From Vicinamibacterales bacterium (GTDB taxonomy: Bacteria > Acidobacteriota > Vicinamibacteria > Vicinamibacterales > UBA8438), in contig CBDBMZ010000003.1 of NCBI GenBank assembly GCA_965207615.1, positions 139,854-203,853 on the forward strand: DNA of 64,000 bases. The letters run 5' to 3'. Positions 1,334 through 20,243 of this stretch are shown here, in pieces. A program made the position numbers and the translations under genes. The notes under the pieces are model-generated. The model searched no databases, had not been told where the DNA came from, and was given only the letters and a program-made list of their open reading frames with translations. The number at the start of each line of letters is the position of its first letter. Position 1 is the first letter of the stretch.

Positions 1334-1440
1334 GACTCAGGTATGTATCATGAATCCGGGCGGTCGAAAAATAGATAAAAACAACAGTACTAGCCAAGAG
1401 TTCACCGGACTAAACGACACAAACTGAAGAAACACACGAA

Positions 1441-1481
1441 ACCCGAAGGGCGCACTTACCGGTTTCGCTGCGCGAAACCGA
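1441..1481 (-). other. oriT, RSF1010/R1162 (MOBQ) type; expected nick on the minus strand between 1451 and 1450
   Basis: The minus strand reads CGGTTTCGC-GCA-GCGAAACCG-G-TAAGTGCGCCCT. That is a 9-bp inverted repeat (1460-1468 / 1472-1480) followed by an exact copy of the conserved R1162/RSF1010 core TAAGTGCGCCCT (1447-1458). It lies between mobC and mobA, next to an AT-rich stretch at 1337-1440. Confidence 0.8.
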
Positions 1482-1519
1482 CGTGCGACGAGAGCCTTCG
1501 GCCCGAAGAGCACGACGCC

Positions 1520-2074
1520 ATGTATTGCCACGTCAACGTGAGCACGGGCAGCCGCGGCACGGGCCAGTCGGCGGCGGCGAAGTACGACTACATCAGCCGC
1601 GCCGGCAAGTACGAGGCGGCCTGCCAGGACGAGGTGGTGCACCTCGAGTCGGGCTCGATGCCGTCGTTCGCGTCGTCGGACGCGCGCCTGTACTGGGCGG
1701 CGGCCGACTGCCACGAGCGGAGCAACGGGCGGCTCTTTCGATCGCTGACGGCGGCGCTGCCCAACTCGCTGGACCCTGCCGGTCGGCTGGATCTGGCGCG
1801 GAGCTTCGCGGCGCACGTGACGTCGGGCGAGTTGCCGTACACGCTGGCGGTGCACGCCGGCGAGTCGAAGAAGGCGGGGGTGGCGGACAACCCGCACCTG
1901 CACCTGGTGTTCTCCGAGCGGGTGAACGACGGGGTGGAGCGCGGGGCGGAGCAGTGGTTCCGGCGGGCGGCGCCGAAGAAGGGCGATCCGGCGTCGGGGG
2001 GCGCGAGGAAGACGGAGCGGACGAAGCCGCGGTCGTGGCTGGAGGAGACGCGACAGGCGTGGGCGGGGAGATGA
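1520..2074 (+). CDS. mobA: MOBQ relaxase, N-terminal nickase domain (0-frame product, 184 aa)
   Basis: Collinear with RSF1010 MobA residues 1 to ~185: STGSRGTGQSAAAKYDYISRAGKY, ERSNGRLFRSL, LPYTLAVHAG, NPHLHLVFSERVNDG (HxH metal site), KPRSWLEETRQAW. The frame stops at TGA 2072-2074 inside the conserved domain. Confidence 0.85.
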   Translation: MYCHVNVSTGSRGTGQSAAAKYDYISRAGKYEAACQDEVVHLESGSMPSFASSDARLYWAAADCHERSNGRLFRSLTAALPNSLDPAGRLDLARSFAAHVTSGELPYTLAVHAGESKKAGVADNPHLHLVFSERVNDGVERGAEQWFRRAAPKKGDPASGGARKTERTKPRSWLEETRQAWAGR

Positions 2075-5000
2075 ACCTGGCGTTCGAGCGGGCCGGCGTG
2101 GACGACCGGGTGACGTCGGAGAGCCACGCCACGCAACTGGCGCGTGCGCGCGCGGCCGGCGACGCGGCGGAGGAGGTGCGTCTTCTGCTGAACCCGCCGT
2201 CGTTGCACATCGGCCCGTCGGCGAAGCACAACTGGGAGGACCGGCCGGGGAGGGCGCAGGAGCTGAAGCCGGATCGGTATGTGGCGGCCGAGGCGGCGGC
2301 GGCTTCCGCCGAGGAGGTCCGTTCGGCGCACGCGCCGGACGTGGCGGAGGTGGCCGAGGCGAGGTCGCGGGTCGCGGCGCTCGACGCGCGTATCGCGGCG
2401 CTGGAGGCGGAGGTGGCGGCCGGCGAACGGCGGGCCGGGCTGGCCGCTCGCGAGGAGTCGGTGCGGGCGACGTCGGCGGGCGGGCAGTGGCTGGACGAGG
2501 CGCACCAGTCGGTCCGCGGCGACGGCCGTCTGACGCCGGGCGAGAGGGAACGCGCCGTGGAGACGGTGGAGGGCCGTCTCCGTGCGGACCTCGCCGCCCG
2601 CGAGGAGTCGCTCATGGCGACGTCGACCGGCTCGACGTTGCTGAAGGAGGAGTACGGGGAGGCCGTCGCCGAGGCGGCGGCGGCGCAGAGCTTCGCGAAG
2701 CGGGAATCCGTTCTGGAACGGGTCGCGCAACGGGTCGGCGAGGAGCTGTCGGCTCGCGAGGAAGCGCTCCGGTCGATCCCGCTGGGCCGGCAGCATCTGT
2801 CGGCGGCGGAACAAGCTCGGGCCGTCGGGCCAGCGGGGCCGCCACTGGCCGAGCGCGAGTCGGTGGTCCGAGCGGCGGAGCAGCGGGTGGGGGAAGAGCT
2901 CGACCGACGCGAGGAACGGGTCCTCGCGGCCACGGGCGACGACCGGCTGCTGGCCGGGGCGGCCGAAGAGCTGACGGAGCGCGGAGCGGTCTCGGGCGAC
3001 GGCGGCTTCGCGGAGCGGGCGCTGATCATCGACCGGGCGGAGGACCTGCTCGAGGCGGAGCGCGCCGAGTTCGGGCTCAAGGAAGCGGATCTGCGGAAGG
3101 ACGCGGCCGGCGAGGAGTTTCTCCGCGACGCCCGGGGTGATGTCCTCGGCGCCGCCGACCGGGAGCCGGAGACGCTCGCCGACGGCTGGACCGTCATCGA
3201 CCAGGCGGCCGCGGCGAGGGCCCGCGTCGAGGCACTCGGCATCGGGGGCATGGACCTGTACCACGCCCACCTGGCGGACATCGATCCGAAGTGGGGCGTG
3301 GACGGGAACGCCGCGACGACGCGCGGGAACCAGGATGCGGCGCTGAGCGCGGCGGATTCGGACGTCGCGCGCCTCGGGCGCCTTCGCGCCGTGCTGTCGG
3401 ACGAGGCCGCCGCCGCCCGCTACCGCGAGGTCCTCGGCGATGGTCCGGGCCGGTTCGACACGGCGGACCTCGACAGGGCCCTCGCGGCGGGCGAGCGGGA
3501 GCGGGAGGAACGCGCGGCGACGGCGTGGGCCGGGCTGGCCGCCCGCGAGGAGTCGGTGCGGGCGACCTCGGCGGGCGGGCAGTGGCTGGACGAGGCGCAC
3601 CAGTCGGTCCTTGCCGACGCCGGCGGCCGCCTGACGCTTGGCGAGAGGGAACGCGCCGTGGAGACGGTGGAGGGCCGTCTCCGGGCGGATCTTGCCGCCC
3701 GCGAGGCGTCGCTCATGGCGACGTCGACCGGCTCGACGTTGCTGAGGGAGGAGTACGGGGAGGGCGGCGCCGCAGCGGCGGCGCAGAGCTTCGCGGAGCG
3801 GGAATCCGTTCTGGACCGGGTCGCGCAACGGGTCGACGAGGAGCTGGGGGCTCGCGAGGAAGCGCTCCGGTCGGTCCCGCTGGGCCGGCGGCATCTGTCG
3901 GCGGCGGAGCAGGCTCGGACCGGCGGTGTTGCGGATGCGCCGCCGACCCCGGCCGAGCGCGAGTCGATGGTCCGCGCGGCGGAGCAGCGGGTGGGAGAGG
4001 ATCTCGACCGGCGCGAGGAACGGGTCCTCGCGGCCACGGGCGACGACCGGCTGCTGGCGGAGGCGGCCGAAGAGCTGGCGGCGCGCGGCGCGGTCTTCGG
4101 CGACAGCGGCTTCGAGGAGCAGGCGTTGATCATCGACCAGGCGGAGGACCTGCTCGAGGGGGAGCGCGCCGGGCTCGAGCTCGAGGAAGGCAAGCTGTTG
4201 AAGGCCGCCGGCGGCGAGGAGTTTCTCCGCAACGCCCGGCTTGACGTCCTCGGCGACGACGACCGGGAGGCGGAGACGCTCGTCGACGGCTGGGCCGTCA
4301 TCGACCAGGCGTCCGCGGCGAAGGCCCGCGTCGAGGCGCTCGGCATCGGGGGCCTGGACCTGTACCACGCCCACTTGGCGGCCGTCGATGCGAAGTGGGG
4401 CGTGGACGGGAACGCCGCGACGACGCGCGTGAGCCAGGATGCGGCGCTGAGCGCGGCGGAGTCGGACGTCGCGCGCCTCGGGCGCCTTCGCGCCGTGCTG
4501 TCGGACGAGGCCGCCGCCGCTCGCTACCGCGAGGTCCTCGGCGACAGTCCGGACCGGTTCGACACGGCGGACCTCGACCGGGCCCTCGCGGCGGGCGAGC
4601 GGGAGCGGGAGGACCGCGCGGCGGCGGCTCGCCGTACGGCGGACCTCGAGACGGCCACGGAGGCGGCGCAGGCCGCGGCGGCGCGGTCGAAGATCAACTT
4701 GCGCCCCGCCGGCGTGCGCGCGGTCTACGAGACCGGCGAGACGCACGCGGCCGGTATCGCGGCCGTGGAGCGCACGACCGAGGCCCTCGACGCTGCGGCC
4801 GACCAGGGTCTCCCGGCCGGCACGGTCATCGACGCCTGGAAAACGAACCGTTCGGCGCCCGGCGGGATAGCGGCGGCCCTTGCCGCCGCCACCGCCGCCG
4901 CCCGCCTTGAGGAGGAGCGTGCCGAGGCGCGCCGCAAGCAGGCGGCCATCGAGAAGCGCAGCTCTCGCGTGAAGCAGCTGTTGGCCGACCCCGCGTCGGC

Positions 5001-6192
5001 CGACGCACTCATCGAGGCCCTCGAAGCGGAGGACCCGTCGTGGCGGTCTGGGATCCGCCCGGCCCGCATCGACCGGGCGCTCGACGTCGCCGAGCGGGAC
5101 GCCGGCCGCCGGGAGGTCGCCACTCGGCGACACCGGGAACACGAGGTGGTCCTGGAGGCGGAACAGCGCTTCCCCGACGCCACCAGCACGGCGTGCCAAT
5201 TCGCGGGTGGCCGTTTCGACGGGACCACGGAGGTCGGCCGTGCGGGCCGGCGCGTCTCGCAGGATCTCTCGGACCGCGCCCTCGTGAGAGCGCACGCGGC
5301 CGAGAAGGCCGAGGCGCCGGCGCCTCGCAACTTCGTTCAGCGGCTCTACGACTGGCTGCGGGATCGGCTCGAGCGGCTGTTCGGCCGTTCGCCCGGCCGG
5401 GCCGCGGAGGCCGCCGCCCTCGGGCCGGCGGCCTCCGCGGAGCGTCCGGCCGAAGCGGGACGGCCTCGACCCGCCGCCTTCGAGGAGCGGTACTGCCGGG
5501 AGTGGCCCGAGCACGCGGCCGACATCCGTCGTCCGGACTTCGAGAAGCTGGCCGCGGGCGCGTTGAGCGGCAACCGGCTCTTCGAGCGGGAGGAGCCCCG
5601 CTCGTCAAGATGGATCACGGTCGAACCGGGCGAGTTGCCGGCCGCTCTCGCCAAGCCCGCGCCGGCTTGGAGCGACAAGGCCGTCGAGGAGGTGACCCGG
5701 CGGGCTACAGTCTGGGACCCGGACCGGACCGAGGGCCGGCGGGTCGCCGAGGCGCACCTGGGCGGCTACGAGAGCCGGTTGCCGGCGGAGTACTCGCACT
5801 CGGCGGAATGGCAGGCGATCCTGAAGCGTGCGGAGGAGGCGGTCGGGAAGGCCCAGAACAGCTGGCGGTACAAGTGGGCCGACCGCCGGAAGGACGACCG
5901 GAAGAAGCGGGAGCTCGAGGCGACCGCTATCAACCGCGCCTGCGGCCGCGATGCGCGCCGCCTGCACGGGAAGATGATGGCGGGGCGTGAGGCCGCGCGG
6001 CCCGGCTGGGAGGTCACGGTCAGGATCCGGGCCGTTCAGGAGCTCATCCGGGACGAAGAGGCGACCCGTTTCAGACAAGAGCGGGAGCAGGCGCGGGAAC
6101 GGGAACAGGCGCAAGAGCGGGAGCGCCCCGCCGACAGGCCGCCGCCCGAGCAGAAGCGGCCGAGAGGCCGGGGACATGTTCTAGATCGATGA
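2065..6192 (+). CDS. mobA: Relaxase continuation in the -1 frame; the fused product would be ~1557 aa
   Basis: The -1 frame continues the MobA alignment without a gap: ..AWAG|EMNLAFERAGVDDRVTSESH.. versus RSF1010 ..AWADHANRALERAGHDARIDHRTL... The rest is an Ala/Glu/Arg-rich, coiled-coil-like extension in which I recognise no primase motif. Confidence 0.7.
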   Translation, partial: GEMNLAFERAGVDDRVTSESHATQLARARAAGDAAEEVRLLLNPPSLHIGPSAKHNWEDRPGRAQELKPDRYVAAEAAAASAEEVRSAHAPDVAEVAEARSRVAALDARIAALEAEVAAGERRAGLAAREESVRATSAGGQWLDEAHQSVRGDGRLTPGERERAVETVEGRLRADLAAREESLMATSTGSTLLKEEYGEAVAEAAAAQSFAKRESVLERVAQRVGEELSAREEALRSIPLGRQHLSAAEQARAVGPAGPPLAERESVVRAAEQRVGEELDRREERVLAATGDDRLLAGAAEELTERGAVSGDGGFAERALIIDRAEDLLEAERAEFGLKEADLRKDAAGEEFLRDARGDVLGAADREPETLADGWTVIDQAAAARARVEALGIGGMDLYHAHLADIDPKWGVDGNAATTRGNQDAALSAADSDVARLGRLRAVLSDEAAAARYREVLGDGPGRFDTADLDRALAAGEREREERAATAWAGLAAREESVRATSAGGQWLDEAHQSVLADAGGRLTLGERERAVETVEGRLRADLAAREASLMATSTGSTLLREEYGEGGAAAAAQSFAERESVLDRVAQRVDEELGAREEALRSVPLGRRHLSAAEQARTGGVADAPPTPAERESMVRAAEQRVGEDLDRREERVLAATGDDRLLAEAAEELAARGAVFGDSGFEEQALIIDQAEDLLEGERAGLELEEGKLLKAAGGEEFLRNARLDVLGDDDREAETLVDGWAVIDQASAAKARVEALGIGGLDLYHAHLAAVDAKWGVDGNAATTRVSQDAALSAAESDVARLGRLRAVLSDEAAAARYREVLGDSPDRFDTADLDRALAAGEREREDRAAAARRTADLETATEAAQAAAARSKINLRPAGVRAVYETGETHAAGIAAVERTTEALDAAADQGLPAGTVIDAWKTNRSAPGGIAAALAAATAAARLEEERAEARRKQAAIEKRSSRVKQLLADPASADALIEALEAEDPSWRSGIRPARIDRALDVAERDAGRREVATRRHREHEVVLEAEQRFPDATSTACQFAGGRFDGTTEVGRAGRRVSQDLSDRALVRAHAAEKAEAPAPRNFVQRLYDWLRDRLERLFGRSPGRAAEAAALGPAASAERPAEAGRPRPAAFEERYCREWPEHAADIRRPDFEKLAAGALSGNRLFEREEPRSSRWITVEPGELPAALAKPAPAWSDKAVEEVTRRATVWDPDRTEGRRVAEAHLGGYESRLPAEYSHSAEWQAILKRAEEAVGKAQNSWRYKWADRRKDDRKKRELEATAINRACGRDARRLHGKMMAGREAARPGWEVTVRIRAVQELIRDEEATRFRQEREQAREREQAQERERPADRPPPEQKRPRGRGHVLDR
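2437..4620 (+). repeat. Tandem direct duplication, 2 units of ~1.09 kb (~365 aa each), inside the relaxase extension
   Basis: Unit 1 starts at 2437 (gggctggccgctcgcgaggagtcggtgcgggcgac..) and unit 2 at 3532 (gggctggccgcccgcgaggagtcggtgcgggcgac..). The protein units run from GLAAREESVRATSAGGQWLDEAHQS to DRALAAGERERE, are highly similar, and differ by a few indels. Confidence 0.9.
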
Positions 6193-6365
6193 GCCCGCTT
6201 CGCGGAAGCAGCGCTCGCTAGGGCCCGGCAGGAGACGCCGTGCGCCACCAGCGCGAGGAGAGCGAGGACTGCCCGGTCGAGCTGAGGCCGTCGGAAGACC
6301 TTCAGTGACGAGTAAATCCTAACAGCCTGCCGGCAGGAGGGCCTTGGCGCGGTCGATATAGAGTC

Positions 6366-6412
6366 GAGCGGGGGTGACGACACGCTCTTCGTGCTCGACG
6401 GCGTGCCGTACC
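6366..6412 (+). repeat. 47-bp direct repeat, copy 1 (partner at 8713-8759)
   Basis: gagcgggggtgacgacacgctcttcgtgctcgacggcgtgccgtacc versus gaggggggctgacgacacgatcttcgtgctcgacggcgtgctgtacc. I count 43/47 identical. Confidence 0.9.
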
Positions 6413-6613
6413 TTCGCGCCGCTGGCCGCCGACGGTCAGCGTCAACCTCGCCGTCGTAGCCGCCCCCCGAGGCCGCGTGCGCCAGCGTCGCCTTGTCCTC
6501 CGCCGTGTCGTCGTCCTCGCTCGCCGTCACCCGTCCGGGCGTGCTCCCATTGCCCCTTACCAGCCCGGGCTTTTCGTCGGGTTTCTGGCCGGGCCACGTG
6601 ATAGGCTGAAGGC

Positions 6614-6889
6614 ATGGAGGCTCTCACGCCGTGGTTGACGCCCGTCCTTCTGGTCGGGCTCTTCGTGTGGCTGCGGCGCGAACTGAACGGTCGCCTTGAC
6701 AGATCAGAGAAGCGGCTCACCGACCGCATGGAGAAGATCGAGAAGCAGGTCGGCGAGCTGGCCAAGGACATGAACCAGCGGTTCGACCAGGTCAACCGCG
6801 AGCTGGCCGATCTGCGCGAGCGGATGGCGAAGCTCGAGGGCTCGCTCGAAGGGTTCCTCGCCGGCCGCCGCGACCGCGACGTCGCCTGA
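6614..6889 (+). CDS. Small N-terminally membrane-anchored coiled-coil protein, function unknown
   Basis: One hydrophobic helix (LTPVLLVGLFVWL) is followed by heptad-like RLTDRMEKIEKQVGELAKDM..LRERMAKLEGSLEG. No motif I can name. Confidence 0.5.
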   Translation: MEALTPWLTPVLLVGLFVWLRRELNGRLDRSEKRLTDRMEKIEKQVGELAKDMNQRFDQVNRELADLRERMAKLEGSLEGFLAGRRDRDVA

Positions 6890-6891
6890 CG

Positions 6892-7830
6892 ATGAGGATA
6901 CAAACCATGGAGAGCAACCCGACTCAGAGGACCGTGTTCATCACGGGTACGAACTCGGGCTTCGGCAAGGCCACCGTCGAACTGTTTGCGGCGAACGGTT
7001 GGAGGGTCGCCGCGACGGTGCGGAACAAGGATCGGCACGCGGACCTGTTCACGGAACTCGCGGGCGTCAAGCTGTACGAACTGGATGTGGACGACTTCAC
7101 CCGGGTAGAGCAGGTCGCAGGCGAGGTCGTCAACGACTTTGGTCGCGTCGACGTGGTGGTCAACAACGCCGGCTACTGCCTGATGGGGCCGACAGAAACC
7201 AGCACCATGGAACAGATCCGGAAGCAGTTCCAGACCAACACTTTAGGCGTATTCGCCGTGACCAAGGCGTTCCTGCCCCACATGCGCGAGGCGGGCGGCG
7301 GGACCATCATCAACATCGCATCCGCGAGCGCTGTGTTCAACTACCCCTTCATCGCCGCCTACGGCGCAAGCAAGTGGGCGGTCCGCGGTCTGACCGAGAG
7401 CCTGGCCGTCGAGCTCGCCCCGTTCAACATCCGCGTCAAGGGGATCTACCCGGGATTCCACGCGACCGGGATCTTCACCAAGCTCGATCAGGGGACCGCG
7501 GATGAAGGCCCCGAGTACCGACTCTACAAGCCTTACTACGCCAATTTCCTCTCGGCACAGAAGGCCCTGCCCAGTGCGGGAAGCCCGGACAGAATCGCCC
7601 GGACGATTTATCGCGCGGCGACGAACCCGGCCGGAAGGCCGCACATCGTGTCCGGGGCGGACGCTAAGCTGCTGGCGTTCATCAAGCGCGTGCTGCCACA
7701 GCGGGCGTTCCTGCGCTTCCAGACGCGCTCGATTCTGTCGCCTATCTCGAAAACGCAGGCGGCATTCATGAGGTTCACCTTCGGCAAGAACCAGCAACCG
7801 TTGCGCATGGACCTGCCCGAAGACTTGTGA
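6892..7830 (+). CDS. Short-chain dehydrogenase/reductase (classical SDR)
   Basis: TGTNSGFGKA (TGxxxGxG), NNAG and YGASKWAV (YxxxK). An alternative start is the ATG at 6907. Confidence 0.9.
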   Translation: MRIQTMESNPTQRTVFITGTNSGFGKATVELFAANGWRVAATVRNKDRHADLFTELAGVKLYELDVDDFTRVEQVAGEVVNDFGRVDVVVNNAGYCLMGPTETSTMEQIRKQFQTNTLGVFAVTKAFLPHMREAGGGTIINIASASAVFNYPFIAAYGASKWAVRGLTESLAVELAPFNIRVKGIYPGFHATGIFTKLDQGTADEGPEYRLYKPYYANFLSAQKALPSAGSPDRIARTIYRAATNPAGRPHIVSGADAKLLAFIKRVLPQRAFLRFQTRSILSPISKTQAAFMRFTFGKNQQPLRMDLPEDL

Positions 7831-8109
7831 TTAACCGCGCCCGGGGCTCCGGGGACGGGGTGGGTCGCGCGGGCGAGCGGCTGCACGCCCGTCCCCGGGT
7901 CGTCTGCGGAAGGGGGCGAGATCCTACGTCAAGCGGGGGTGCTACATCAGCGAGCAGTACGGTTGGCTATTCGAGCCTGCGTGCCTCGAGTACGACGGCG
8001 GGCGGCTCGTCATCCTCAAGACCACCGCCGACGGTACGGCCGAGAGCTGGACGGAGGTAGGGGGACCCGGCGCTGATCGCTCCGGACGATCATCGACAGA
8101 GGAGGCGAC

Positions 8110-8724
8110 ATGAGCGAAGCAGTCACCGTGACTCTGGGACGCGACCCGGCCCAGCGACGGCGGGCGACCTACCAGGATGTGCTCGATGCCCCCGCCCATC
8201 GGGTCGCCGAGGTCGTTGACGGCGTGCTCCACACGAATCCGCGGCCGGCCATGCCGCATTCTTTGGCGAGTTCCCGACTGGGCGGCGAACTCACGGGACC
8301 ATTCGATCGGGGTCGCGGCGGCCCCGGCGGATGGTGGATCATCTTCGAGCCCGAGCTGCACTTGGGCGAGGATATCCTCGTGCCCGACCTCGCCGGTTGG
8401 CGGCGGGAGCGGATGCCTGTCTTTCCCGATGCGCCGTACGCCACGCTGGGCCCCGACTGGGTGTGCGAAGTGCTCTCGCCGTCGACCCGCAAGCTGGACC
8501 TCCACGGCAAGCGCGACGTCTATGGGCGTGAACAGGTGGGTCATCTCTGGCTCGTCGACCCCGCCGACCGCACCCTGGAGGCCTTCGAACTGCGCGAGGG
8601 CGAATGGGTGCTGATCGCCACCGCGCAGGATGACGCCCCCGTCAGCATCCGCCCCTTCGACGCCGTCACCTTCAGCCTCGGCGATCTCTGGCCGCCGAAT
8701 GTCGCCCCGGCCGAGGGGGGCTGA
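8110..8724 (+). CDS. Uma2-family (DUF820) putative endonuclease
   Basis: VPDLAGW..PDWVCEVLSPSTRKLDLHGKRDVYGREQVGHLWLVDP is the typical Uma2 PD-(D/E)xK-like core. GAGGAGG lies 5 nt (gcgac) upstream of the ATG. The stop codon lies inside 47-bp repeat copy 2. Confidence 0.8.
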   Translation: MSEAVTVTLGRDPAQRRRATYQDVLDAPAHRVAEVVDGVLHTNPRPAMPHSLASSRLGGELTGPFDRGRGGPGGWWIIFEPELHLGEDILVPDLAGWRRERMPVFPDAPYATLGPDWVCEVLSPSTRKLDLHGKRDVYGREQVGHLWLVDPADRTLEAFELREGEWVLIATAQDDAPVSIRPFDAVTFSLGDLWPPNVAPAEGG

Positions 8725-8759
8725 CGACACGATCTTCGTGCTCGACGGCGTGCTGTACC
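8713..8759 (+). repeat. 47-bp direct repeat, copy 2
   Basis: See copy 1. In frame it reads DDTIFVLDGVLYH, which resembles the Tn3-family TnpA motif RD(S/A)TxVLDGLLYHE. Confidence 0.9.
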
Positions 8760-8775
8760 ATAGAAACGAGGACGG

Positions 8776-9303
8776 TCAGTTCGGAAAACCCCGCGTCAGA
8801 AGTCCATCGAGCGCCAGCTTGAACCACGCAGTGTATCCCGTCGGACGCTCTGCGAGCTCCCTTTGAATCGTGGGCACGGTCGCCCACTTCCATTCCTCCA
8901 CTTCTTGGTCGTCCGGTGCCGGAACACCACAGAACCGCCCAATCAGCACGTGATCGAACTCATGCTCCACGAGTCCGCCGTCCGTTGCTGCCCGGTACAC
9001 GAAGCCGAACACGACCCGCAGCGGGCAGTTGAACCCCATTTCCTCCTTCAACCGGCGCTCAGCAGCCCCAATCAGGGACTCTCCCGCCCTCGGATGGCCG
9101 CAACAGGTGTTGGACCAGAGACCGCCCGAGTGGTACTTGCCGGCCGCGCGCTTCTGCAACAGCAGGCGGTCGGTTTCGTCGAAGACGAAGATCGAGAACG
9201 CCCGGTGCAGGATTCCGTTCCGGTGAGCCGCCATCTTCTCCACGACTCCCGTTTGCCGGTCGTCGCCGTCGACGGCAATCAGGAGCGTATCGGAATCCTG
9301 CAT
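8776..9303 (-). CDS. idi: Isopentenyl-diphosphate delta-isomerase, type 1 (Nudix fold)
   Basis: LHRAFSIFVFD..LLLQKRAAGKYHSGGLWSNTCCGHPRAGE..AAERRLKEEMG matches the type-1 IDI signature, including the catalytic Cys and Glu context. Confidence 0.85.
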   Translation of the reverse strand: MQDSDTLLIAVDGDDRQTGVVEKMAAHRNGILHRAFSIFVFDETDRLLLQKRAAGKYHSGGLWSNTCCGHPRAGESLIGAAERRLKEEMGFNCPLRVVFGFVYRAATDGGLVEHEFDHVLIGRFCGVPAPDDQEVEEWKWATVPTIQRELAERPTGYTAWFKLALDGLLTRGFPN

Positions 9304-9382
9304 GGGTGTTCACCTCTTAACCGCGGCATCGACGGAATCGTCGACTGGATGTTTGCCGCCGGGAAGTCGTCGGCCCGCCGGG

Positions 9383-10651
9383 TCACCATTCTCGCGAATC
9401 TTCCTCGAACACCGAGGTCGGCAGGCTGTAGGAATGCTCGTACTCGCCGAGATTCGAGACTTCGAGCATGCTCCTGAACCGCGACCTCGACCGATACGCG
9501 GCCAGCGGCGGCGCGAGCCTCCGCAGCATCCTGTCGCCGAAATTGCGCAGCCGCAGCAGCGGAAGCTCCTTCTTCAGTCTTCCGGCGGGGAACCTCAGCT
9601 CGTCGGCCAGCCCGTCCCCGATCATTTCCCGCGACACCTGGTACATGTACTTCGCCATGGCGCGCCGCGCCTTGGGTTCGGTGAACCCCAGAACGATCGG
9701 CGCGCTGTTGACGATGCTGTTCGCCATGATGATCGCGTCCTCGTCGGGCCGCGGCTCGCACAGCGCTCCAATCTCGAACCACCTGACCGACGAGGCGTAG
9801 TCCCGGAACAGGATCTCGTCGGGTATCCCCATGAGGCGGCCGGTGTACCGCCAGACGTGCACGTACCCCTCGCGTTCCCGGTCGCTGAAATCTCCGCCGA
9901 GGTTCGATACATGCTGCAGCAGCCTCCCCGAGAAGGCGGCGGCGCCGAGCAGCATGTGCGCCGCGCTGAGGGGGACCCCGTATACCGACCGGTCCCATTC
10001 GTCGGAAGTCGAGACCAGCCGCCTCGCCTGCGCGTGCACGAGCCGGATCCTGAGGCTCAGCTTCCACCCGTCGCCGCCCGGCTCGATGCCTCCGGGCAGG
10101 TACTGTTCCAGGAGCTGCAGCAGGTTCTGCTTGAGCCGCCGCACGCCGTTCGTCATGATGCGGCTGCGAATGCGGAACGACTTGCTGATGAGCGTGGAGA
10201 AGCCCTCGATGATGGCGCCGCCCACCAGGGCGCCCATCACCATCTCGGAGTTGCGAAGGAAGGCCCGGGTCGCGTCGCGGGCGAGATCGCGGTCGAACCA
10301 GTCGGGCACGACGCCCGAGTCAGCAATCAGGTCACGCAGCGACTTGGGCGTGTCGGCCGGCAGATCGCTGAAGCTGTCGAGCGTCCTCGCGATGATTCCG
10401 TGCACGTCCGCCGGCGACGCGTTCGCCGCCAGCTCGGCGACCACCGCGTCGGCCACCGGGTCCCCCAGGGTCGTGTGGCGGATGTACCTCTCGGCCAGCA
10501 CGGGGTCGACCTTGCGGGCGGTTTCGTAACCGGCGACGTAGGCGGTCGGGATGTTCATCATGCCGGAGAAACGCTCGGTGAGGGGGGGTGCGCAACGAGG
10601 AGCGGAACCGCCTGCGTCGGGTGAACGCGGCGGCGCGGTCATCGCCGTCAC
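9383..10651 (-). CDS. MpaB/DUF2236-family oxygenase (the family that includes the latex-clearing protein Lcp)
   Basis: Length and the ..LSLRIRLVHAQARRL.. (R-x-x-H-A) block are typical of DUF2236. Its start overlaps the upstream P450 stop by 4 nt. Confidence 0.65.
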   Translation of the reverse strand: MTAMTAPPRSPDAGGSAPRCAPPLTERFSGMMNIPTAYVAGYETARKVDPVLAERYIRHTTLGDPVADAVVAELAANASPADVHGIIARTLDSFSDLPADTPKSLRDLIADSGVVPDWFDRDLARDATRAFLRNSEMVMGALVGGAIIEGFSTLISKSFRIRSRIMTNGVRRLKQNLLQLLEQYLPGGIEPGGDGWKLSLRIRLVHAQARRLVSTSDEWDRSVYGVPLSAAHMLLGAAAFSGRLLQHVSNLGGDFSDREREGYVHVWRYTGRLMGIPDEILFRDYASSVRWFEIGALCEPRPDEDAIIMANSIVNSAPIVLGFTEPKARRAMAKYMYQVSREMIGDGLADELRFPAGRLKKELPLLRLRNFGDRMLRRLAPPLAAYRSRSRFRSMLEVSNLGEYEHSYSLPTSVFEEDSREW

Positions 10652-12048
10652 CTCGGGCGCTCCCGGATGGTCACTCGAAAGCCGAGGACGCCTACCCCGA
10701 TGTTCTCGCGTTTCGGCGGGCGGCTCGACGCCGGCTCGATCCGCAGGCGCTGGGTCATGGTCGCCAGCGCCAGGACGAACAGCATCGCCGCCAGATCCGC
10801 GCCGGCGCAGGTGTGCGGGCCGCTCCCGAAAGGGATGTACGCCTGTTCGTGTCGGACCGGTCCGTCACGCCGCGAGTCCTCCAGCCAGCGTTCCGGCCTG
10901 AACTCGCCGGCCCGCGTCCAACCGTCGGCGCGGTGGTGGAGCACACGCATGCCGACGTACACCAGCGTTCCCTTCGGAACCGGATAGCCGCCCAGCACGC
11001 AGTCTTCCTCCGCCCGCCTGGCCCGCATGACATAGGGCGGCGGCTCCAGACGCAACGTCTCCTTGAACACCGCCTGCACGTACTCGAGCCTCTGCAAGTC
11101 GCCCGGCTCCACCGGCCGGTCCCCCAGCACGTCCGAGACCTCTCTCTCCACCCGATCCCGGATGGCCGGATCGCGTGCGACGTGGTGCAGCGCGAAGCAC
11201 AACGCGGCCGTCGGCGCATCCGTGAACGCGCACAGGAAGGCGATGATCTCGTCGCGCAGCGCCCGGGGGCTCGGGTACGACCACCCGCACAGACCCCGGC
11301 GCGCGGCCCGGACGAGGTGTGAAACCAGATCGCGGCCCTCGTGGGCGGGGTCGCCGGCGCGTTCGATGGCGCCGTATATCGCCGCGTCCAGCGCCGCGGT
11401 ATCGGGCGCCCGCCCCATCTTCTTGATGGACTGGCCGAACGGCAGGAGATCCAGAAGCATCGCGGCTTTCAACAGCCTGCAGATCCGCAACCCCTGATCG
11501 CGGTCCGCGTCGCGGCCGAGGACGGCCTCCGCCAGGGCGTCCCACACGTAGCGCTCCACCTCCGGCCGCAGATCCAGCGCCCGCCCCGGCGCCAGCCTCT
11601 CTCGGAGCCTCAGGGCGTGCCGGCCGATGACCTCCGCGTAGCCGGGAAGGCGGTCCTTCGTGAACGCCGTGGCCATGAGCTCGGCGCGCCGGCGGTGCTC
11701 CTCGCCGTCGTGCACGGGCAGGCAGCCGTGCTCCATCAGCGGGTTCGGCTCCCGGCCGCCGGGCGCCCAGGGCGGAAAGGACTCCGCCCGCGTGACGAGG
11801 ACCTCCCGGACGAGGTCGGCGTTGAAGACCGCGCAACACCTCAGGGAAGGAAGACTGAAGAACACGATGTCTCCATGGTCCCGGTAGAGCCGCTCCATGA
11901 ACTCCGGAAAGCCGGTGAACCGCTCGACGTAGTTGCGCAGCCGCCGGCCCCGCGGTCCCGGGGGACGGGCCGGCTTGTCGTCGGCGGAACGCTGCCCGGC
12001 CATGTCCTCCGAGCTGGGAGCCGGCTCTTCTTTGGCGGAACGCTGCAT
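10648..12048 (-). CDS. Cytochrome P450
   Basis: Heme loop FGSGPHTCAGADLA (FxxGxxxCxG) and the ETLRL (ExxR) motif. The N-terminus carries PPGPRG. Confidence 0.9.
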   Translation of the reverse strand: MQRSAKEEPAPSSEDMAGQRSADDKPARPPGPRGRRLRNYVERFTGFPEFMERLYRDHGDIVFFSLPSLRCCAVFNADLVREVLVTRAESFPPWAPGGREPNPLMEHGCLPVHDGEEHRRRAELMATAFTKDRLPGYAEVIGRHALRLRERLAPGRALDLRPEVERYVWDALAEAVLGRDADRDQGLRICRLLKAAMLLDLLPFGQSIKKMGRAPDTAALDAAIYGAIERAGDPAHEGRDLVSHLVRAARRGLCGWSYPSPRALRDEIIAFLCAFTDAPTAALCFALHHVARDPAIRDRVEREVSDVLGDRPVEPGDLQRLEYVQAVFKETLRLEPPPYVMRARRAEEDCVLGGYPVPKGTLVYVGMRVLHHRADGWTRAGEFRPERWLEDSRRDGPVRHEQAYIPFGSGPHTCAGADLAAMLFVLALATMTQRLRIEPASSRPPKRENIGVGVLGFRVTIRERPR

Positions 12049-12067
12049 CGCGATGTCCTTCTTCGAA

Positions 12068-13477
12068 TCAGCTGCCGGGCTCCCGTCGCTCGACGCGCGC
12101 CCGTATCGGCCCCTTCACCCCCAGCCCGAGCAGCTCGGCCCGGAACGGCGTGGGTGATTCGAGGGTCAGACGCATGCCCTGCGCACAGCCCGCGAGGGTC
12201 AGCACGACGAGCACGGTGGCGAACTCCCAGCCGAGGCAGCTGTGGGGCCCGATGAAGAACGGCGTGCAGGCATGGTCGGGACGGGAACCCCCCGAGCCGT
12301 CCATCCAGCGCTCCGGGCGGAACTCCGCCGGCCGCTCCCAGACCGCGGGGTCCCGGTGCGATTCGCCGAGGCACGGTTGCGCAATCGTGCCCCTGGGAAT
12401 CCGGTAGCCGCCGACGACGCAGTCCTCCGACGCCTGCCGCCAGTGCGACGTGCCGGCGTAGGAAGGTGGTCTCAGCCGGAAGCTCTCGCTGGCGACGGCC
12501 CGTGCGTACGGAAGGCGGTCGAAGTCGGCCCCGGCGACCGGGCGGTCACCGAGCACGTCGTCGACCTCCCGCTCCAGCCGCTCGCGAACTTGGGGATTCC
12601 GATCGAGCAGCTCGAGGCTCCACACCAGCCCCATCATCGGCGAGTCGATGGAGCCGAGCACGATCATGTAGATCTCGTCCCGCAGCTCCCGGTCGCCGGC
12701 GGCGAACGGGCAACCGTCCTGCGCGTCGGCGGTGCGGACGACGTGGGAGACCATGTCCTCGCCGCCGTGCGAAGGGTCGCGGGCCTTCCGCATGGCGGCG
12801 TACACGGCGTCGTCCATGCGCTCGATGGCGCGCCGGGCGCGCCGGTTCGCGGGCAGGGGCAGGCGCTTCAGCGCGCCGGACGCCGGGAGGTAGCTCAGCG
12901 CCCAGTCGCGCTTTATCGCCGCGCCGGCATCCCACGCCACTTCCGGCGGAACCCGCGGCTCGCGGCCGAGGAGGGCGTCGAGCAGAGCGCCGCACGCGAG
13001 GCGGCCGGTCTCGGCCTTGTAGTCGATGGTCTGCCCCGCCCCCCAGCGCTCCTTCATCTCGTGGATGTTGTCGGCGATGAGGTCGGCGTAGCGGCGCATG
13101 CGGCGCTCGACGAACGCGCCCCCGAACACCTCGCGCACGCGTTGGTGGTGCTCGCCGTGGTCGCGCGGCATGCAGGGCGTCGCGATGACCCCGAAGCCCG
13201 CGGGATCGTTGAACGCCGGGAACATGTCGGCCTTCTCGACGAGGACCTCGCGGATCAGGTCCGCGTCGAACAGGGCGCAGAAGTCCAGGCCCGGAATCCG
13301 GTAGTGGACGATCCTTCCGTATTCCTCGTGAAGCCGCCTCATCATGCCGCGAAAATCGCGCGAGCGCTCGATCAGGTTGCGTATCCGCCGTCCCTTCGGA
13401 CCGGGAGGCAGTCGCCGATTGCCGTTGTCGGAGCCCTGCATCGATCGCCGTTCCTTTCCTGTTTTCCCTTCCCGCAC
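12068..13477 (-). CDS. Cytochrome P450, paralogue of the downstream one
   Basis: Heme loop FFIGPHSCLGWEFA and the ESFRL motif. The N-terminus PPGPKGRRIRNLIERSRDF parallels PPGPRGRRLRNYVERFTGF of its neighbour. An alternative start is the ATG at 13441. Confidence 0.9.
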   Translation of the reverse strand: MREGKTGKERRSMQGSDNGNRRLPPGPKGRRIRNLIERSRDFRGMMRRLHEEYGRIVHYRIPGLDFCALFDADLIREVLVEKADMFPAFNDPAGFGVIATPCMPRDHGEHHQRVREVFGGAFVERRMRRYADLIADNIHEMKERWGAGQTIDYKAETGRLACGALLDALLGREPRVPPEVAWDAGAAIKRDWALSYLPASGALKRLPLPANRRARRAIERMDDAVYAAMRKARDPSHGGEDMVSHVVRTADAQDGCPFAAGDRELRDEIYMIVLGSIDSPMMGLVWSLELLDRNPQVRERLEREVDDVLGDRPVAGADFDRLPYARAVASESFRLRPPSYAGTSHWRQASEDCVVGGYRIPRGTIAQPCLGESHRDPAVWERPAEFRPERWMDGSGGSRPDHACTPFFIGPHSCLGWEFATVLVVLTLAGCAQGMRLTLESPTPFRAELLGLGVKGPIRARVERREPGS

Positions 13478-13528
13478 TCCGCGCCCGCCGCCCGCGTCGC
13501 AACGCGCCGCGCCCGTCCGCGCGCCGTG

Positions 13529-16500
13529 TCAGCCGACCGGCGCCGGCCGTGCCGTTGCAGCCGGCCCGCTCATGGCCGTTCGGGGCATCGTGACGCCGAA
13601 GTACACGGTGGCCAGGGCCGGCACGACCAGCATCAGGATCGCCGTCGCGAACAGCAGCCCGAAGCCGAGCGAGACGCCGAGCGGGCTGAGGAACTGCGCC
13701 TGAATGCTCCGCTCGAAGATCAACGGTGCGAAGCCCAGGAACGTCGTCAACGACGTCAGCATGATGGGGCGGAAGCGCCGCTTCGCGCCGTCGATGACCG
13801 CGGTCCTCACGGGCGCCCCGAGCCTGAGCCGCTCGCAGATGAAGTCGATCATCACGAGAGAGTCGTTGACGACGACGCCGGTGAGTCCGATGACGCCCCA
13901 CATGGACGTGGCGCTCAGACCGATGCCCATGATGAGGTGGCCGAGGACGGCCCCCACGATGCCGAACGGTATGGCCGCCATCACGAGCAGCGGCATGGTG
14001 TATGAACCGAACGGAATGGCGAGCAGCGCATAGATCGCCAGCAGGGCGAGAAGCAGACCGCGGGTCAGCCCCTCGAACGACTCGGCCTGCTGCTGTTGCT
14101 GGCCGCCCACCGCATACGTCAGACCCGGATAGGCGCTCTCGAGCTCGGGCAGCGCCGTGGCCGTCAGCACCGCGGTCGCTTCGCCGCCGGTGATGACGCC
14201 GTCGTCGACGTCCGCCGTGACGGTGACGATGCGGCGGCCGGCCTTGCGCCGGATCGACGACGGCGATTCCCCCAGGCTCACGGTGGCGACCCGGCTCAGG
14301 GGCACGTCGGCGCCGCCGGGCGTGCGGATGAGGTAGTCCTCGACGTCGGCTATCGTGTCGCGGTCCTCGGGCGGCAGCCGCACGTAGACGCGGACATCCT
14401 CCCGCCCGCGTTGCACGCGCAGGGCCTCTTCGCCGAAGAACGCCGCGCGCACCTGGCGGGCCAGCGCGTCGAGCGTCAGTCCGAGGGTCCGCGCCGCGGG
14501 CCGCAGCTCGATCTGCAGCTCCTGCACGCCCGACGCGTGGTCGGAGCGCACGTCGAAGACCCCCTCGATCCCGCGCAGGCTGTCGACGACCGACTCGGCG
14601 ATCGGACCGAGGCGGTCCGGCTCCGGGTGCGCCAGCTCGACCTGCACCGGGACGCCGAGGTCGAGCAGGTCGGCGCCGAAGGTCAGGCTGCGCGCGTCGG
14701 GAGCTGGGCCCGCCTGCCGCCGCCAGGCCTGCGCGAACGTCTCCGCGGCGATGTCCCGGACCTCGGCGGCAGGCAGCCTGAACTCCACGGCGGCGACGTT
14801 GGCCCGGGGATTCAGGTCGGGCGTCTGCTCGATGGAGCCTCCCAGGGTTCGCGCCCTCGCGCCGACCGTCAGGTTCACACCGGTCAGCAGATCGGGCGCG
14901 CCGTCGGGGCGACCGCGCGACAGGTCGTCGATGGCCCGTCGCCCGGCCGCTTCCAGCTCGCGCGCCAGCTCGGCCGTTCGGTGCGCGGGAGTGCCTTCCG
15001 GCATCACCAGGCTGGCCGTGACGATGTCCGATTCGACGTCCTCGATGAAGATGACGGGGACCGTTCCCGATCCGACCAAGCCGATGCACAGGATGACGGC
15101 GGCCACGCCGCCCGCGATCACGACGGCCGGCTCGCCGGTGGCCAGCCGCAACCCCCGGTCGAGCGGCCCTTCGATGAACCACCGCAACCCGCCGTCCACG
15201 CGGCCCTGGATCCACGAGAAGAAGCGCTCGACCGGGTTGGCCGGCGGCAGCGCCGGGTCCGGCAGGTGGGACAGGTGGTGCGGCAGCACCAAGAGGGATT
15301 CGACCAGCGAGACCAGCAGCACCCCGATCAGGATGATCGAGAGCGGGCGCATCATGGCGCCGATGGGGCCGGGGACGAGCAGGAGCGGCGCGAAGGCGCC
15401 GACGGTGGTGAGGACCGCGAAGACCACCGGGCGCCCGACCCGTTGAGCGCCCCGAATCGCCGCCGCGAGGGGTGGCGTCCCCCTTCGCCGCTCGGCATGC
15501 ACGTTCTCGGCGACGACGATGGCGTCGTCGACCACGATGCCGACCGCGAGAATGAAGGCGAAGAGGGAGATGGTGTTGATGGAGACGTCGAACGCCAGCG
15601 CCACCGCGAGGGCGCCGACGAAGGAGATGCCGATGCCCGCCGCGACCCACGCCGCCAGGCGGATCTGGAGAAACATGGCCAGCGCCGCGAGGACGAGCAG
15701 CAGGCCCAGCGCGCCGTTCTCCCGCAGCAGGTCCAGGCGGCTCTCGTACACTTCCGCGTCGTTGTTCCAGATCTCGACGGCCACGCCAGCGGGCAGCGAC
15801 GGGACGACCTGCCGCGCCAGATGGTCTTCGACGGCGGCCACGACCTCCATGACCTGCTCGCCGGAGGACCGGTACACCTCGACGAACGCCGCCGGCCGTC
15901 CGTTGTAGCGGACGATCAGGTCGGTGTCGGCGAAGCCGTCGCGCACCGTCGCCACGTCGCCGAGGCGGACGGCGGTCCCGTCGGCCCTGCTCAGGACGAC
16001 GATCTCCTCGAAGTCGTGCTGGTGGTAGCGCCGGCCGGTGGTGCGGACGCGCACCTGCGCGTCGCGCGTCTCCAGGCGGCCGGCCGACAGGTCGAGCGAG
16101 CCCGCGCGGACCGCGTCGGAGACGTCGGCATGCGTCAGCCCCAGCGCGCGCAGCCGGTGCAGCGGTACCTCGACGGAGACTTCATAGGCGCGCACCCCGC
16201 TCGTCTCCACCTGGGAGACCCCCGGAAGCGCGGCGAGACCGTCCTCGATGCGGTACGCCAGCTCCTTGAGCGCGCGTTCCCCGACGTCGCCGTACACCAC
16301 CAGGCGAAGGACGCTCTGGCGGTTGGTCATCTCGCGAATCCGCGGGCGTTCGGCCCGGGCCGGCAGCGTCCGAATCCGGCCGACGGCGGCCTCGACCTCG
16401 TCGAGGGCGCGGCCCGCACCGGCGCCGGCCGCGAGTTCGACGACCACGGAGGCCAGTCCCTCGGCGGCGACGGACGTCACCTCGCCGACGCCCTCCAGCG

Positions 16501-16750
16501 TCCCGACCTGCTCCTCGATCCGGACGACTATCGACTCCTCCACCTCGTTCGGGGTCGCTCCGGGGTACGGCACGGTAATCTCGATGGCGTCGAGAGACAC
16601 CGTGGGAAACGGCTCCTGCACCAGGCCGGGCAGCGACAGCAACCCCGCCGCCACGATGAAGAACATCAGGAGGTTGGCGGCCACCCCGTTCCGGGCCATC
16701 CAGGCGACGGGCCCGCGCGATTCCTGCGCGAAGCGGTCGTCCGGGCTCAA
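13529..16750 (-). CDS. RND efflux transporter, inner-membrane permease (AcrB/HAE-like)
   Basis: 1073 aa. The N-terminus ..NGVAANLLMFFIVAAGLLSLPGLVQEPFPTVSLDAIEITVPYPGATPNEVEESI.. and the 12-TM architecture are typical. It overlaps the adaptor stop by 4 nt. Confidence 0.9.
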   Translation of the reverse strand: MSPDDRFAQESRGPVAWMARNGVAANLLMFFIVAAGLLSLPGLVQEPFPTVSLDAIEITVPYPGATPNEVEESIVVRIEEQVGTLEGVGEVTSVAAEGLASVVVELAAGAGAGRALDEVEAAVGRIRTLPARAERPRIREMTNRQSVLRLVVYGDVGERALKELAYRIEDGLAALPGVSQVETSGVRAYEVSVEVPLHRLRALGLTHADVSDAVRAGSLDLSAGRLETRDAQVRVRTTGRRYHQHDFEEIVVLSRADGTAVRLGDVATVRDGFADTDLIVRYNGRPAAFVEVYRSSGEQVMEVVAAVEDHLARQVVPSLPAGVAVEIWNNDAEVYESRLDLLRENGALGLLLVLAALAMFLQIRLAAWVAAGIGISFVGALAVALAFDVSINTISLFAFILAVGIVVDDAIVVAENVHAERRRGTPPLAAAIRGAQRVGRPVVFAVLTTVGAFAPLLLVPGPIGAMMRPLSIILIGVLLVSLVESLLVLPHHLSHLPDPALPPANPVERFFSWIQGRVDGGLRWFIEGPLDRGLRLATGEPAVVIAGGVAAVILCIGLVGSGTVPVIFIEDVESDIVTASLVMPEGTPAHRTAELARELEAAGRRAIDDLSRGRPDGAPDLLTGVNLTVGARARTLGGSIEQTPDLNPRANVAAVEFRLPAAEVRDIAAETFAQAWRRQAGPAPDARSLTFGADLLDLGVPVQVELAHPEPDRLGPIAESVVDSLRGIEGVFDVRSDHASGVQELQIELRPAARTLGLTLDALARQVRAAFFGEEALRVQRGREDVRVYVRLPPEDRDTIADVEDYLIRTPGGADVPLSRVATVSLGESPSSIRRKAGRRIVTVTADVDDGVITGGEATAVLTATALPELESAYPGLTYAVGGQQQQQAESFEGLTRGLLLALLAIYALLAIPFGSYTMPLLVMAAIPFGIVGAVLGHLIMGIGLSATSMWGVIGLTGVVVNDSLVMIDFICERLRLGAPVRTAVIDGAKRRFRPIMLTSLTTFLGFAPLIFERSIQAQFLSPLGVSLGFGLLFATAILMLVVPALATVYFGVTMPRTAMSGPAATARPAPVG

Positions 16751-19527: not shown

Positions 19528-19739
19528 CACGGCCAATGGACTCGACGACCCCGGCGCGCCAGCAGCCGCATTCGCGTTTGCACCCCGTTGGCGAAGCACC
19601 GCCAATGAATACCACAATCCAGACGGTCGGCAAATGGATCAAGGCAACAGCGGGCTTCGATCTGACGGAGTCGGCCCTCCGGACACGGGTCGAGCACGCG
19701 CAGGCCGACCGGACGAAGGGCCGGGACGGGCCTGACTGT

Positions 19740-20005
19740 CGCCCCGGCCGACTCGGCTGCGCCGTGCGGTGGGAGGTGCCCGACAGGAAGGTCTGCGCCC
19801 TGCTGACGCAACGCATGGCCGGAGCGCTGTCAGCACCGATGCGCGAAGGTCTTGATGCGCTGGTCGCCGTCGACGACGACCAGCCGCACTCGCCCCTGAA
19901 CCGGGTCAAGGCGAACTCGTCGGTCCGCGGCATGAAGCGGCTGCTGGTGAGGCTGGAGCTGAGCGAGGCGACCTATGTCCTGGGAGTCGACGTGGGCTGG
20001 GGCAA
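19740..20005 (+). pseudogene. Tn3-family transposase fragment (region around aa ~190-260 of TnpA)
   Basis: ..REGLDALVAVDDDQPHSPLNRVKANSSVRGMKRLLVRLELSEATYVLGVDV.. parallels Tn21 TnpA ..[50 protein letters not shown].. (from memory). No N- or C-terminal continuation is present. Confidence 0.55.
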
Positions 20006-20243
20006 ACAGCAACTACCAGCGGATCCGTCGTCCTCTCGGGCAACGCCCGCCGGATGCTGACCCAGGGCGGGCCGGACAGGGCCCGCGAGCGACGCGGGCC
20101 GCACTGTATCCGATCCGTCCGCCGCGGCCCGCGTGCGGGTCTGTCGGCCCGCCGCTTCGGGGCGTGCCGCTCCGTCCGCCCCTGCTTCAACGCCGTGCCA
20201 GGTCGAGAGGTTGGCTTGCACGCACAGTCGTCCCATCCGCCCC

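Follow-up and report, generated by a model that had tools for sequence, protein, structure and literature searches.

A stretch of 64,000 nucleotides from a Vicinamibacterales genome (contig CBDBMZ010000003.1, called the window below, at its full length) very probably contains, at 1441-1501 on the minus strand, the origin of transfer (oriT) of a mobilisation cassette of the MOBQ1 type, represented by the plasmids RSF1010 and R1162. The cassette is composed of a gene for a cI-like repressor, mobC, the oriT and mobA, and it is most aptly described as the mobilisation module of a chromosomal, mobilisable island. The assignment is drawn from sequence comparison, that is from the match of a hairpin and a nick core to the oriT of IncQ1 plasmids, from the conservation of both in a family of related loci, and from the genes on either side. 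The system itself is of a known kind (MOBQ1 oriT, mobilisable island). The host phylum and the abundance of the family are what is new, and we present the finding as a careful annotation and not as a new principle.

The hairpin and the nick core

The spacer between the divergent mobC and mobA is delimited by their start codons (ATG 1333-1331 and ATG 1520, respectively), and the divergent promoters are presumably located within it. A preliminary description of this DNA, made from the sequence alone, had called this 186-nt spacer the most AT-rich stretch of the region, and this was borne out, with a GC content of 0.51 at 1301-1500 compared with 0.62-0.80 in the rest of the first 8 kb. On the minus strand, positions 1480-1447 read CGGTTTCGC (1480-1472)-GCA (1471-1469)-GCGAAACCG (1468-1460)-G (1459)-TAAGTGCG (1458-1451)-CCCT (1450-1447), letter for letter as first described. 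The repeat finder gave two arms of 9 nt, 100% complementary, around a loop of 3 nt. The 12-mer TAAGTGCGCCCT occurs only once in the window, where 0.11 chance matches with one mismatch or less would be expected. Rfam gave zero matches across the whole 64 kb.

As reference for the oriT, we used RSF1010-like IncQ1 plasmids found by blastn in a collection of 72,556 plasmids. The spacer matched 183 records, 158 of them typed as mobilisable, and the matches were limited to query positions 33/42-73, which correspond to the hairpin and the core. The three matches that were inspected (H2, H8, H25) are IncQ1/MOBQ plasmids and align at their oriT, which has mobC on one side and mobB/mobA on the other; order and orientation agree with those of the window. 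At this place the IncQ1 plasmids read CCAGTTTCTCGAAGAGAAACCGGTAAGTGCGCCCTCCCC in the alignment to the window; the 20 nt GAAACCGGTAAGTGCGCCCT are identical, and one T-A pair of the RSF1010 stem is a G-C pair in the window, both sides being changed. The hairpin immediately precedes the core on its 5' side, the base of its stem (AACCGG) lying 8 nt from the predicted nick, in the register of RSF1010, and the whole is located next to the cognate relaxase gene in the RSF1010 order mobA <- oriT -> mobC. The preliminary description had proposed, from an R1162/RSF1010 sequence quoted there, that the 12-nt core and the proximal arm are identical and that the distal arm has co-varied. The alignment confirms the match, and the quoted core proved to be correct, both in the IncQ1 plasmids and in a published RSF1010 substrate (PMC4814116).

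This published RSF1010 substrate is cleaved as ...GAGAAACCGGTAAGTGCG/CCCTCCC (PMC4814116). RSF1010 MobA(1-186) was assayed on CAGTTTCTCGAAGAGAAACCGGTAAGTGCG/CCCTCCC, and a variant with a shortened and altered stem, CCGGTTGAAAACCGGTAAGTGCG/CCCTCCCC, was cleaved equally well; according to these authors the enzyme contacts the stem base only, the stem base and the core being enough for a nick at GTGCG/CCCT (PMC4814116). The window fits this pattern, as its stem base and core are identical to those of RSF1010 and the top of its stem is free to co-vary. Because the oligonucleotides are cut at the homologous site, the nick is predicted, by homology, between G1451 and C1450 of the minus strand, at the same G/C step as in RSF1010.

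The passage of PMC3832669 that quotes Francia et al. (2004) gives NWACCNNTAAGTGCGCCCTYNN as the consensus of the MOBQ nick region, and a near-identical consensus, NcgtNtaAgtGCGCcCTta, is quoted for Gram-positive plasmids (PMC10333310). The window reads AAACCGGTAAGTGCGCCCTTCG, which satisfies all specified positions of NWACCNNTAAGTGCGCCCTYNN and leaves no difference at the consensus level. In the same paper, TAAGTGCGCCCT stands as the consensus of the whole MOBQ family (PMC3832669). Since the relaxase is itself a MOBQ enzyme, an exact core match is expected and not surprising in itself; the match noticed in the preliminary description is real, but it is less surprising than was implied there. 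Differences from RSF1010 are found around the conserved block: the top of the stem is GC in the window and TC/GA in RSF1010, the stem is a perfect 9 bp instead of 10 bp with a mismatch, and CCCT is followed on its 3' side by TCGGG instead of CCCC.

Conservation was followed in two scans of the family loci. The exact core was present at 30 of the 36 loci of the first scan (it was cut by a contig end at one more and variant at another), and the exact hairpin-plus-core motif at 33 of the 37 loci of the second. Column statistics on 31 unique spacers gave 100% conservation for the arms, 99% for the core and 76% for the loop, with 55-67% for the remaining spacer, which is below the adjacent coding sequence. 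Such a distribution points to purifying selection on the hairpin and the core, which supports only indirectly a specific cleavage by the relaxase and a cis-acting role in mobilisation. The same layout, namely xGTTTCxx-loop-xxGAAACx, 2-4 nt, and (A/T)AGTGCGCCCT, is found upstream of the genes of relaxases that are 42-54% identical and belong to other Acidobacteriota, Gemmatimonadota, Binatota, Desulfovibrionaceae, Truepera (Deinococcota) and Betaproteobacteria. The stems of these distant relatives carry compensatory changes both near the loop (TC/GA, GC/GC, CC/GG, TG/CA, AT/AT) and at the base (CCG/CGG, CAG/CTG, AAG/CTT). Comparative sequence evidence for what would be a functional hairpin-plus-core site is thus good.

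The mobilisation proteins and the interrupted relaxase gene

The preliminary description had placed the spacer between MobC and an RSF1010-type relaxase, and both proteins were recovered. The N-terminal ~94 aa of MobC are 33% identical to IncQ1 MobC (L003:2616-2900; BLASTP, E 2e-11), a homology also detected by tblastn (E 2e-7). Its C-terminal ~80 aa form an extension beyond the homology to RSF1010 MobC, and no Pfam or NCBIfam model was above threshold for this protein. The relaxase domain, joined to its continuation in the second part of mobA, matches R1162 minMobA (PDB 2NS6) over residues 3-193 with E 8e-55. By tblastn with an RSF1010-type MobA the identity is 54% at residues 2-174, the primase half remaining unmatched, and it is 51% over ~225 N-terminal residues in an alignment (A2) of ten diverse relatives, in which the catalytic Y24 and the histidine triad H112/H126/H128 are invariant. 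The best relaxase match among the 72,556 plasmids is an IncQ1 MobA (49% identity). In contrast to RSF1010 MobA, the relaxases of the family reach 800-1,560 aa, with a C-terminal region for which Pfam, NCBIfam and PDB sequences gave zero matches. A tandem duplication of ~1.1 kb (2421-3524 and 3515-4628, ~90% identity) is present inside the second part of mobA; it doubles the relaxase to ~1,557 aa, compared with 800-850 aa in most family members. The leftmost gene of the conserved cassette encodes the repressor, of which a full-length homologue is found at L005:4030-5136. Its Pfam matches are weak (Peptidase_S24, E 0.0016; HTH_3, E 0.014), and together with the S24-like motif they suggest a cI-like repressor that may be induced by DNA damage.

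The first part of mobA ends at a TGA (2072-2074) owing to a tract of four G at 2065-2068, and the ATG of the second part (2071) overlaps this stop (ATGA). The alignment with 2NS6 crosses the junction without any gap (QAWAG/EMNLAFERAG against EAWADHANRALERAG). At this junction the window DNA reads GCGGGGAGATGA (G4), whereas in the three closest relatives (L004-L006, 95-98% protein identity) the sequence is GCGGGGGAGATG (G5) and mobA forms one open reading frame (ORF) of 1,555-1,559 aa; in more distant family members the mobA ORFs are of ~800-850 aa. The 184-aa domain, proposed in the preliminary description as a protein that could be purified by itself, is therefore the product of a G-run that is one nucleotide short, and not a stand-alone protein. 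Other database proteins of 184-185 aa were considered as instances of a natural stand-alone domain and rejected, their frameshifts being located elsewhere and reaching the same out-of-frame stop.

We do not conclude that the G4 tract is an assembly error, because 51 other G/C runs of at least five, within 12 long intact ORFs of the window, are all in frame, and because the same G4 is present in L201 (7532-7566), an independent sample with an element 92% identical in DNA. There, mobA was likewise split by the gene caller, into 184 and 1,511 aa. The split falls at the end of the region matching the minimal active domain of R1162 MobA, of which residues 1-186 alone nick in vitro (PMC4814116). Slippage that recurs, a sequencing error specific to the site, or a split that is tolerated may each account for the tract. 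Unless both halves of mobA are made and are sufficient, an intact relaxase from a paralogous copy would have to serve the site in trans.

These data bear on the explanation that competes most closely with an active module, according to which the oriT is intact but the window copy, its relaxase inactivated by the frameshift, is decaying and non-autonomous, the site being either silent or used in trans by the relaxases of sister copies. It is compatible with the identification of the site as a MOBQ1 oriT and differs on the activity of the window copy. The G5 tract and intact ORFs of L004-L006 speak in its favor, as do the 51 runs found in frame, by which random assembly error is not the obvious cause, and the presence of an integrase remnant and of an IS110 element in the island; the identical oriT cores of the copies make an action in trans feasible. 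At the same time, the G4 shared with the independent L201 makes a single, recent inactivation event less likely, translation of the downstream part may still occur from the ATGA overlap, both reading frames are otherwise intact beyond the shift, and the first 186 residues are sufficient for nicking in R1162. Taken together, we consider a decaying copy a distinct possibility that falls somewhat short of being probable.

The cassette was also claimed to be a complete IncQ-style mobilisation module in an integrated element devoid of IncQ replication genes. The latter part agrees with our results, as the setting is chromosomal and island-like, tblastn found no RepB homologue in the window (E > 3), and Pfam scans of the window found no replication-protein family, RepA and RepC having been examined by Pfam only. 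Completeness could not be retained, since MobB and the primase half of MobA, both part of RSF1010, are absent from the window; the primase half gave no tblastn match there, and inside mobA, where MobB was sought, no alternative-frame ORF has a coding GC3 pattern. It is very improbable that the cassette is an integrated IncQ-like plasmid, or the remnant of one, rather than a module native to an integrative element. Although among plasmids the relaxase domain, MobC and the oriT all have their nearest relatives in IncQ1, with the same gene order, the protein identity is only ~50%, and GC3 (0.89-0.90) matches the host. The boundaries of the cassette are conserved, with a cI-like repressor and variable cargo, across more than 30 chromosomal loci, and the window has no replication proteins by Pfam and, by tblastn, no homologue of the primase domain, of MobB or of RepB (E > 0.3).

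The island, its cargo and its limits

The features of the window are collected in Table 1. The relatives of the relaxase come almost all from metagenome-assembled genomes (MAGs) of Vicinamibacterales/Acidobacteriota, many of them chromosome-scale, and the cassette is present in seven copies in OZ253664.1, four in CBDEVO010000003.1 and three in OZ242003.1. A chromosomal location, in a multi-copy island of Acidobacteriota, sets it apart from RSF1010.

Table 1. Coordinates of the cassette and of the other features of the window.
Feature	Position	Strand	Description	Basis or remark
cI/LexA-like repressor gene, 3' part	1-659	plus	HTH and S24-peptidase-like, GDSM motif	Cut by window start
mobC	803-1333	minus	Relaxosome accessory protein, 176 aa	Homology to RSF1010 MobC
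mobC-mobA spacer	1334-1519		186 nt, contains the predicted oriT	GC minimum of the region
Outer inverted repeat	1443-1501	minus	Encloses hairpin and predicted nick	Repeat finder and single-strand fold
Nick core	1447-1458	minus (transferred strand)	TAAGTGCG/CCCT	Identity to IncQ1/RSF1010
Hairpin of the predicted oriT	1460-1480	minus	Arms 1480-1472 CGGTTTCGC and 1468-1460 GCGAAACCG, loop 1471-1469 GCA	
mobA part 1	1520-2074	plus	MOBQ1 relaxase (HUH nuclease) domain, 184 codons	Pfam MobA_MobL
mobA part 2	2068-6192	plus, -1 frame	~1,373 codons	First ~55 codons continue MobA homology
Cargo block	6200-20177		SDR, Uma2, Nudix, MpaB-like oxygenase, two P450s, RND pump (AcrB/MFP/OMF)	Pfam
Tyrosine integrase remnant	31287-31650	minus		tblastn with L121 integrase, residues 199-319
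AlpA-type excisionase/regulator gene	40106-40411	plus		Pfam Phage_AlpA, E 3e-18
Tyrosine integrase gene	41413-42573	minus	Candidate island integrase	Pfam Arm-DNA-bind_3, Phage_int_M, Phage_integrase
PQQ-dependent dehydrogenase gene, 3' fragment	42743-43564	plus	From codon ~316 (WYYQH)	Abuts integrase

Sequence beyond the left end of the window was taken, as a proxy, from the sister genome CBDEVO010000003.1. The similarity between family loci begins ~830 nt to the left of window position 1, just upstream of the repressor gene, and runs through mobC, the oriT and mobA; beyond, the cargo differs. The cargo block of the window is missing in L004 and L005, where window position 6192 is directly joined to sequence matching 20177 onwards, and another relative carries defence genes. 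Genes at 6892-19638 code for an SDR, two cytochromes P450, an MpaB/Lcp-like oxygenase, a Nudix/IPP-isomerase-like protein and a Uma2 nuclease, and the RND efflux pump encoded there is complete; this looks like a small cluster for oxidative metabolism and export carried on the island. Pfam identified the genes for AcrB, for the MFP (HlyD) and for the outer-membrane factor (OEP) in the window. Because such a pump is encoded, the host is taken to be diderm, and an actinobacterial host was ruled out by the pump and by the Vicinamibacterales relatives.

The arrangement from mobA to the integrase recurs in two sister elements of a related genome, over ~39 kb (L006/L051) and ~21 kb (L005/L047). The integrase gene is followed by a fragment of a pyrroloquinoline quinone (PQQ)-dependent dehydrogenase gene, 73% identical to residues 316-588 of an intact paralogue at 59352-61115, and a further intact paralogue is located at 53026-55239. 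The same breakpoint in the PQQ-dehydrogenase gene stands beside the integrase in at least ten loci from different genomes (L042-L052), and similarity to L051 and L047 stops at 43564, which is the stop codon of the gene. Together these two observations suggest site-specific insertion into PQQ-dehydrogenase paralogues, and the fragment is the probable integration target and right junction of the island. The 5' half of the gene was looked for and not found. ARAGORN found no tRNA gene at the integrase; its single call, a 'tRNA-???' at 31577-31667, lies inside the integrase remnant and was taken as false.

No protein of the VirB4, VirD4 or TraG families was found by Pfam among the ~45 predicted proteins of the window, and no family of a type IV secretion system (T4SS) or coupling protein within 7-10 kb in L121, L122 and L201, the region to the left of the window lying outside this search. 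A self-transmissible integrative and conjugative element was rejected on these grounds, and the islands, which have no transfer apparatus of their own, are regarded as mobilisable rather than self-transmissible. Integrative mobilisable elements (IMEs) with MobQ relaxases are a known class, the canonical ones listed in a 2017 review being only from Bacteroidetes, Firmicutes and one actinobacterium (PMC5704250). The island resembles IMESp2907 of Streptococcus pyogenes (PMC5704250) in being chromosomal, with its own relaxase, oriT and accessory factor, without mating-pore genes, and with a tyrosine integrase nearby and variable cargo. It differs from canonical IMEs by its diderm host in the Acidobacteriota and by its presence in up to seven copies per chromosome.

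Several observations weigh against a functional module on a mobilisable island. The window copy does not have one uninterrupted relaxase reading frame, so that its cis relaxase gene is interrupted. MobB was not found, the best tblastn match (E 0.36) lying elsewhere in the window; RSF1010 needs MobB for efficient transfer. A scan of the spacer for sigma-70 consensus promoters and for terminators found none, and no helper T4SS was identified. As regards the island, its left end lies outside the window, no sharp end emerged when the left boundaries were aligned, and a comparison of the left boundary of sister elements with the integrase-side flank, in search of att direct repeats, gave only repeats of 10-13 nt, at chance level. 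The link between the cassette and the integrase 41.4 kb into the window comes from recurrence in three elements only, and the integrase remnant in the middle of the island suggests a composite of several elements.

Other observations concern the history of the locus. A piece of ~125 nt (31155-31281) is separated from mobA by 25 kb in the window, although in typical family members it comes immediately after this gene, and such a displacement points to rearrangement or accretion. A sequence of ~170 nt (33013-33180) recurs in many related loci, at 80-90% identity and in either orientation, and is adjoined in the window by a gene for a 533-aa protein without family match (33282-34883, minus strand); the repeat may represent one end of an insertion sequence that is as yet uncharacterised. 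At 35041-35550 (plus strand), a DNA-binding protein of the HU/IHF family is encoded (Pfam Bac_DNA_binding, E 6e-12), and in other systems proteins of this type assist relaxosomes and recombination complexes as accessory factors. In L201, three tandem tyrosine recombinase genes directly follow mobA (L201:12228-14555), and in L121 divergent pairs of such genes flank the mob cassette (L121:4748-7188 and 15177-16304). These clusters indicate that the loci are hot spots for nested or tandem integrative elements.

The outer inverted repeat and the proposed transfer

A longer inverted repeat encloses the hairpin and the predicted nick, and it has no counterpart in RSF1010. CCGAAGG (1501-1495) pairs with CCTTCGG (1449-1443), just 3' of the nick, and CGCAC (1487-1483), 5' of the hairpin, pairs with GTGCG (1455-1451) of the core. 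The flank-flank duplex has a dG of -15.0 kcal/mol (z -3.8 against shuffles). Outer pairing reached p <= 0.05 in 13 of 33 diverse oriTs, belonging to about eight separate clades, but not in the two IncQ1-type sequences examined (L179, L189). Co-varying extensions of the repeat are seen in L188 (GGAAGGCGCAC/GTGCGCCTTCC), L191 (CCACAGGCGCAC/GTGCGCCTGTGG) and L178 (GAAGAGAGGG/CCCTCTCTTC), longer ones being found in several clades (L178, L188, L191, L193, L200, L194-198), and GCGCAC stands beside the hairpin in most of the non-IncQ relatives (L160-L200).

A structural role (splint for rejoining, cruciform) and a symmetric protein-binding site would both yield this pattern. As a splint, the repeat would hold the relaxase-bound 5' end beside the 3'-OH in the transferred strand until they are rejoined; alternatively, it could sequester the nick after termination. 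We put forward as speculative, and on balance unlikely, the idea that the outer repeat is an additional layer of the oriT which RSF1010 lacks and, separately, that the G4/G5 tract with its ATGA is no damage but a switch, used recurrently, by which the relaxase is made either fused or split. The outer repeat could also be a symmetric site for a dimer, and the RSF1010 oriT region also carries the mob promoters, which are autoregulated. That the palindrome chiefly serves mobC and mobA as a protein-binding operator or transcription signal, and resembles a nick site for reasons other than nicking, is nonetheless the least credible explanation. The conserved block is asymmetric (a hairpin and a single-stranded core), and across phyla each of its bases agrees with the sequence recognised by the relaxase. 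Its arms co-vary and its loop is variable, which is expected of a hairpin but not of a linear operator, and no terminator or promoter consensus was found in the spacer.

For the MOBQ1 oriT, transfer can be proposed by analogy with RSF1010. MobC would open the duplex and help the N-terminal HUH domain of MobA onto the oriT, where the relaxase would bind TAAGTGCG in single-stranded form together with the hairpin base (AACCG/G). Cleavage between G1451 and C1450 would leave Tyr24 linked to the 5' C, and the relaxase with its strand would be exported through the T4SS of a co-resident conjugative element. The strand would leave 5' to 3' towards mobC, hence mobA and the hairpin would enter the recipient last, and the ends would there be rejoined at the reconstituted hairpin and core. 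Nicking and its position, the helper T4SS, excision of the island and any activity of the window copy are what we infer from the sequence, homology, conservation and context described above.

Acidobacteriota are one of the dominant soil phyla, and their conjugation is essentially unstudied. According to a 2012 survey, almost nothing was known experimentally about conjugation in this phylum (PMC3548315). The cassette offers a testable entry point, with a predicted nick site and a small relaxase domain close to a crystallised enzyme, and the family, with dozens of near-identical origins, carries efflux pumps, P450s and defence systems. Broad-host-range IncQ plasmids have an identical relaxase recognition sequence, which makes it plausible that IncQ-type and acidobacterial relaxases could act on each other's origins; if true, this would have consequences for gene flow between soil bacteria and Proteobacteria.

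Relaxases of ~50% identity with the same type of oriT are also found on Vicinamibacterales MAG contigs of 32-38 kb (L160, L164, L165, L169-L176), some of which are labelled 'chromosome_N'. These contigs may be plasmids, in which case the phylum would have both plasmid-borne and island-borne MOBQ1 modules.

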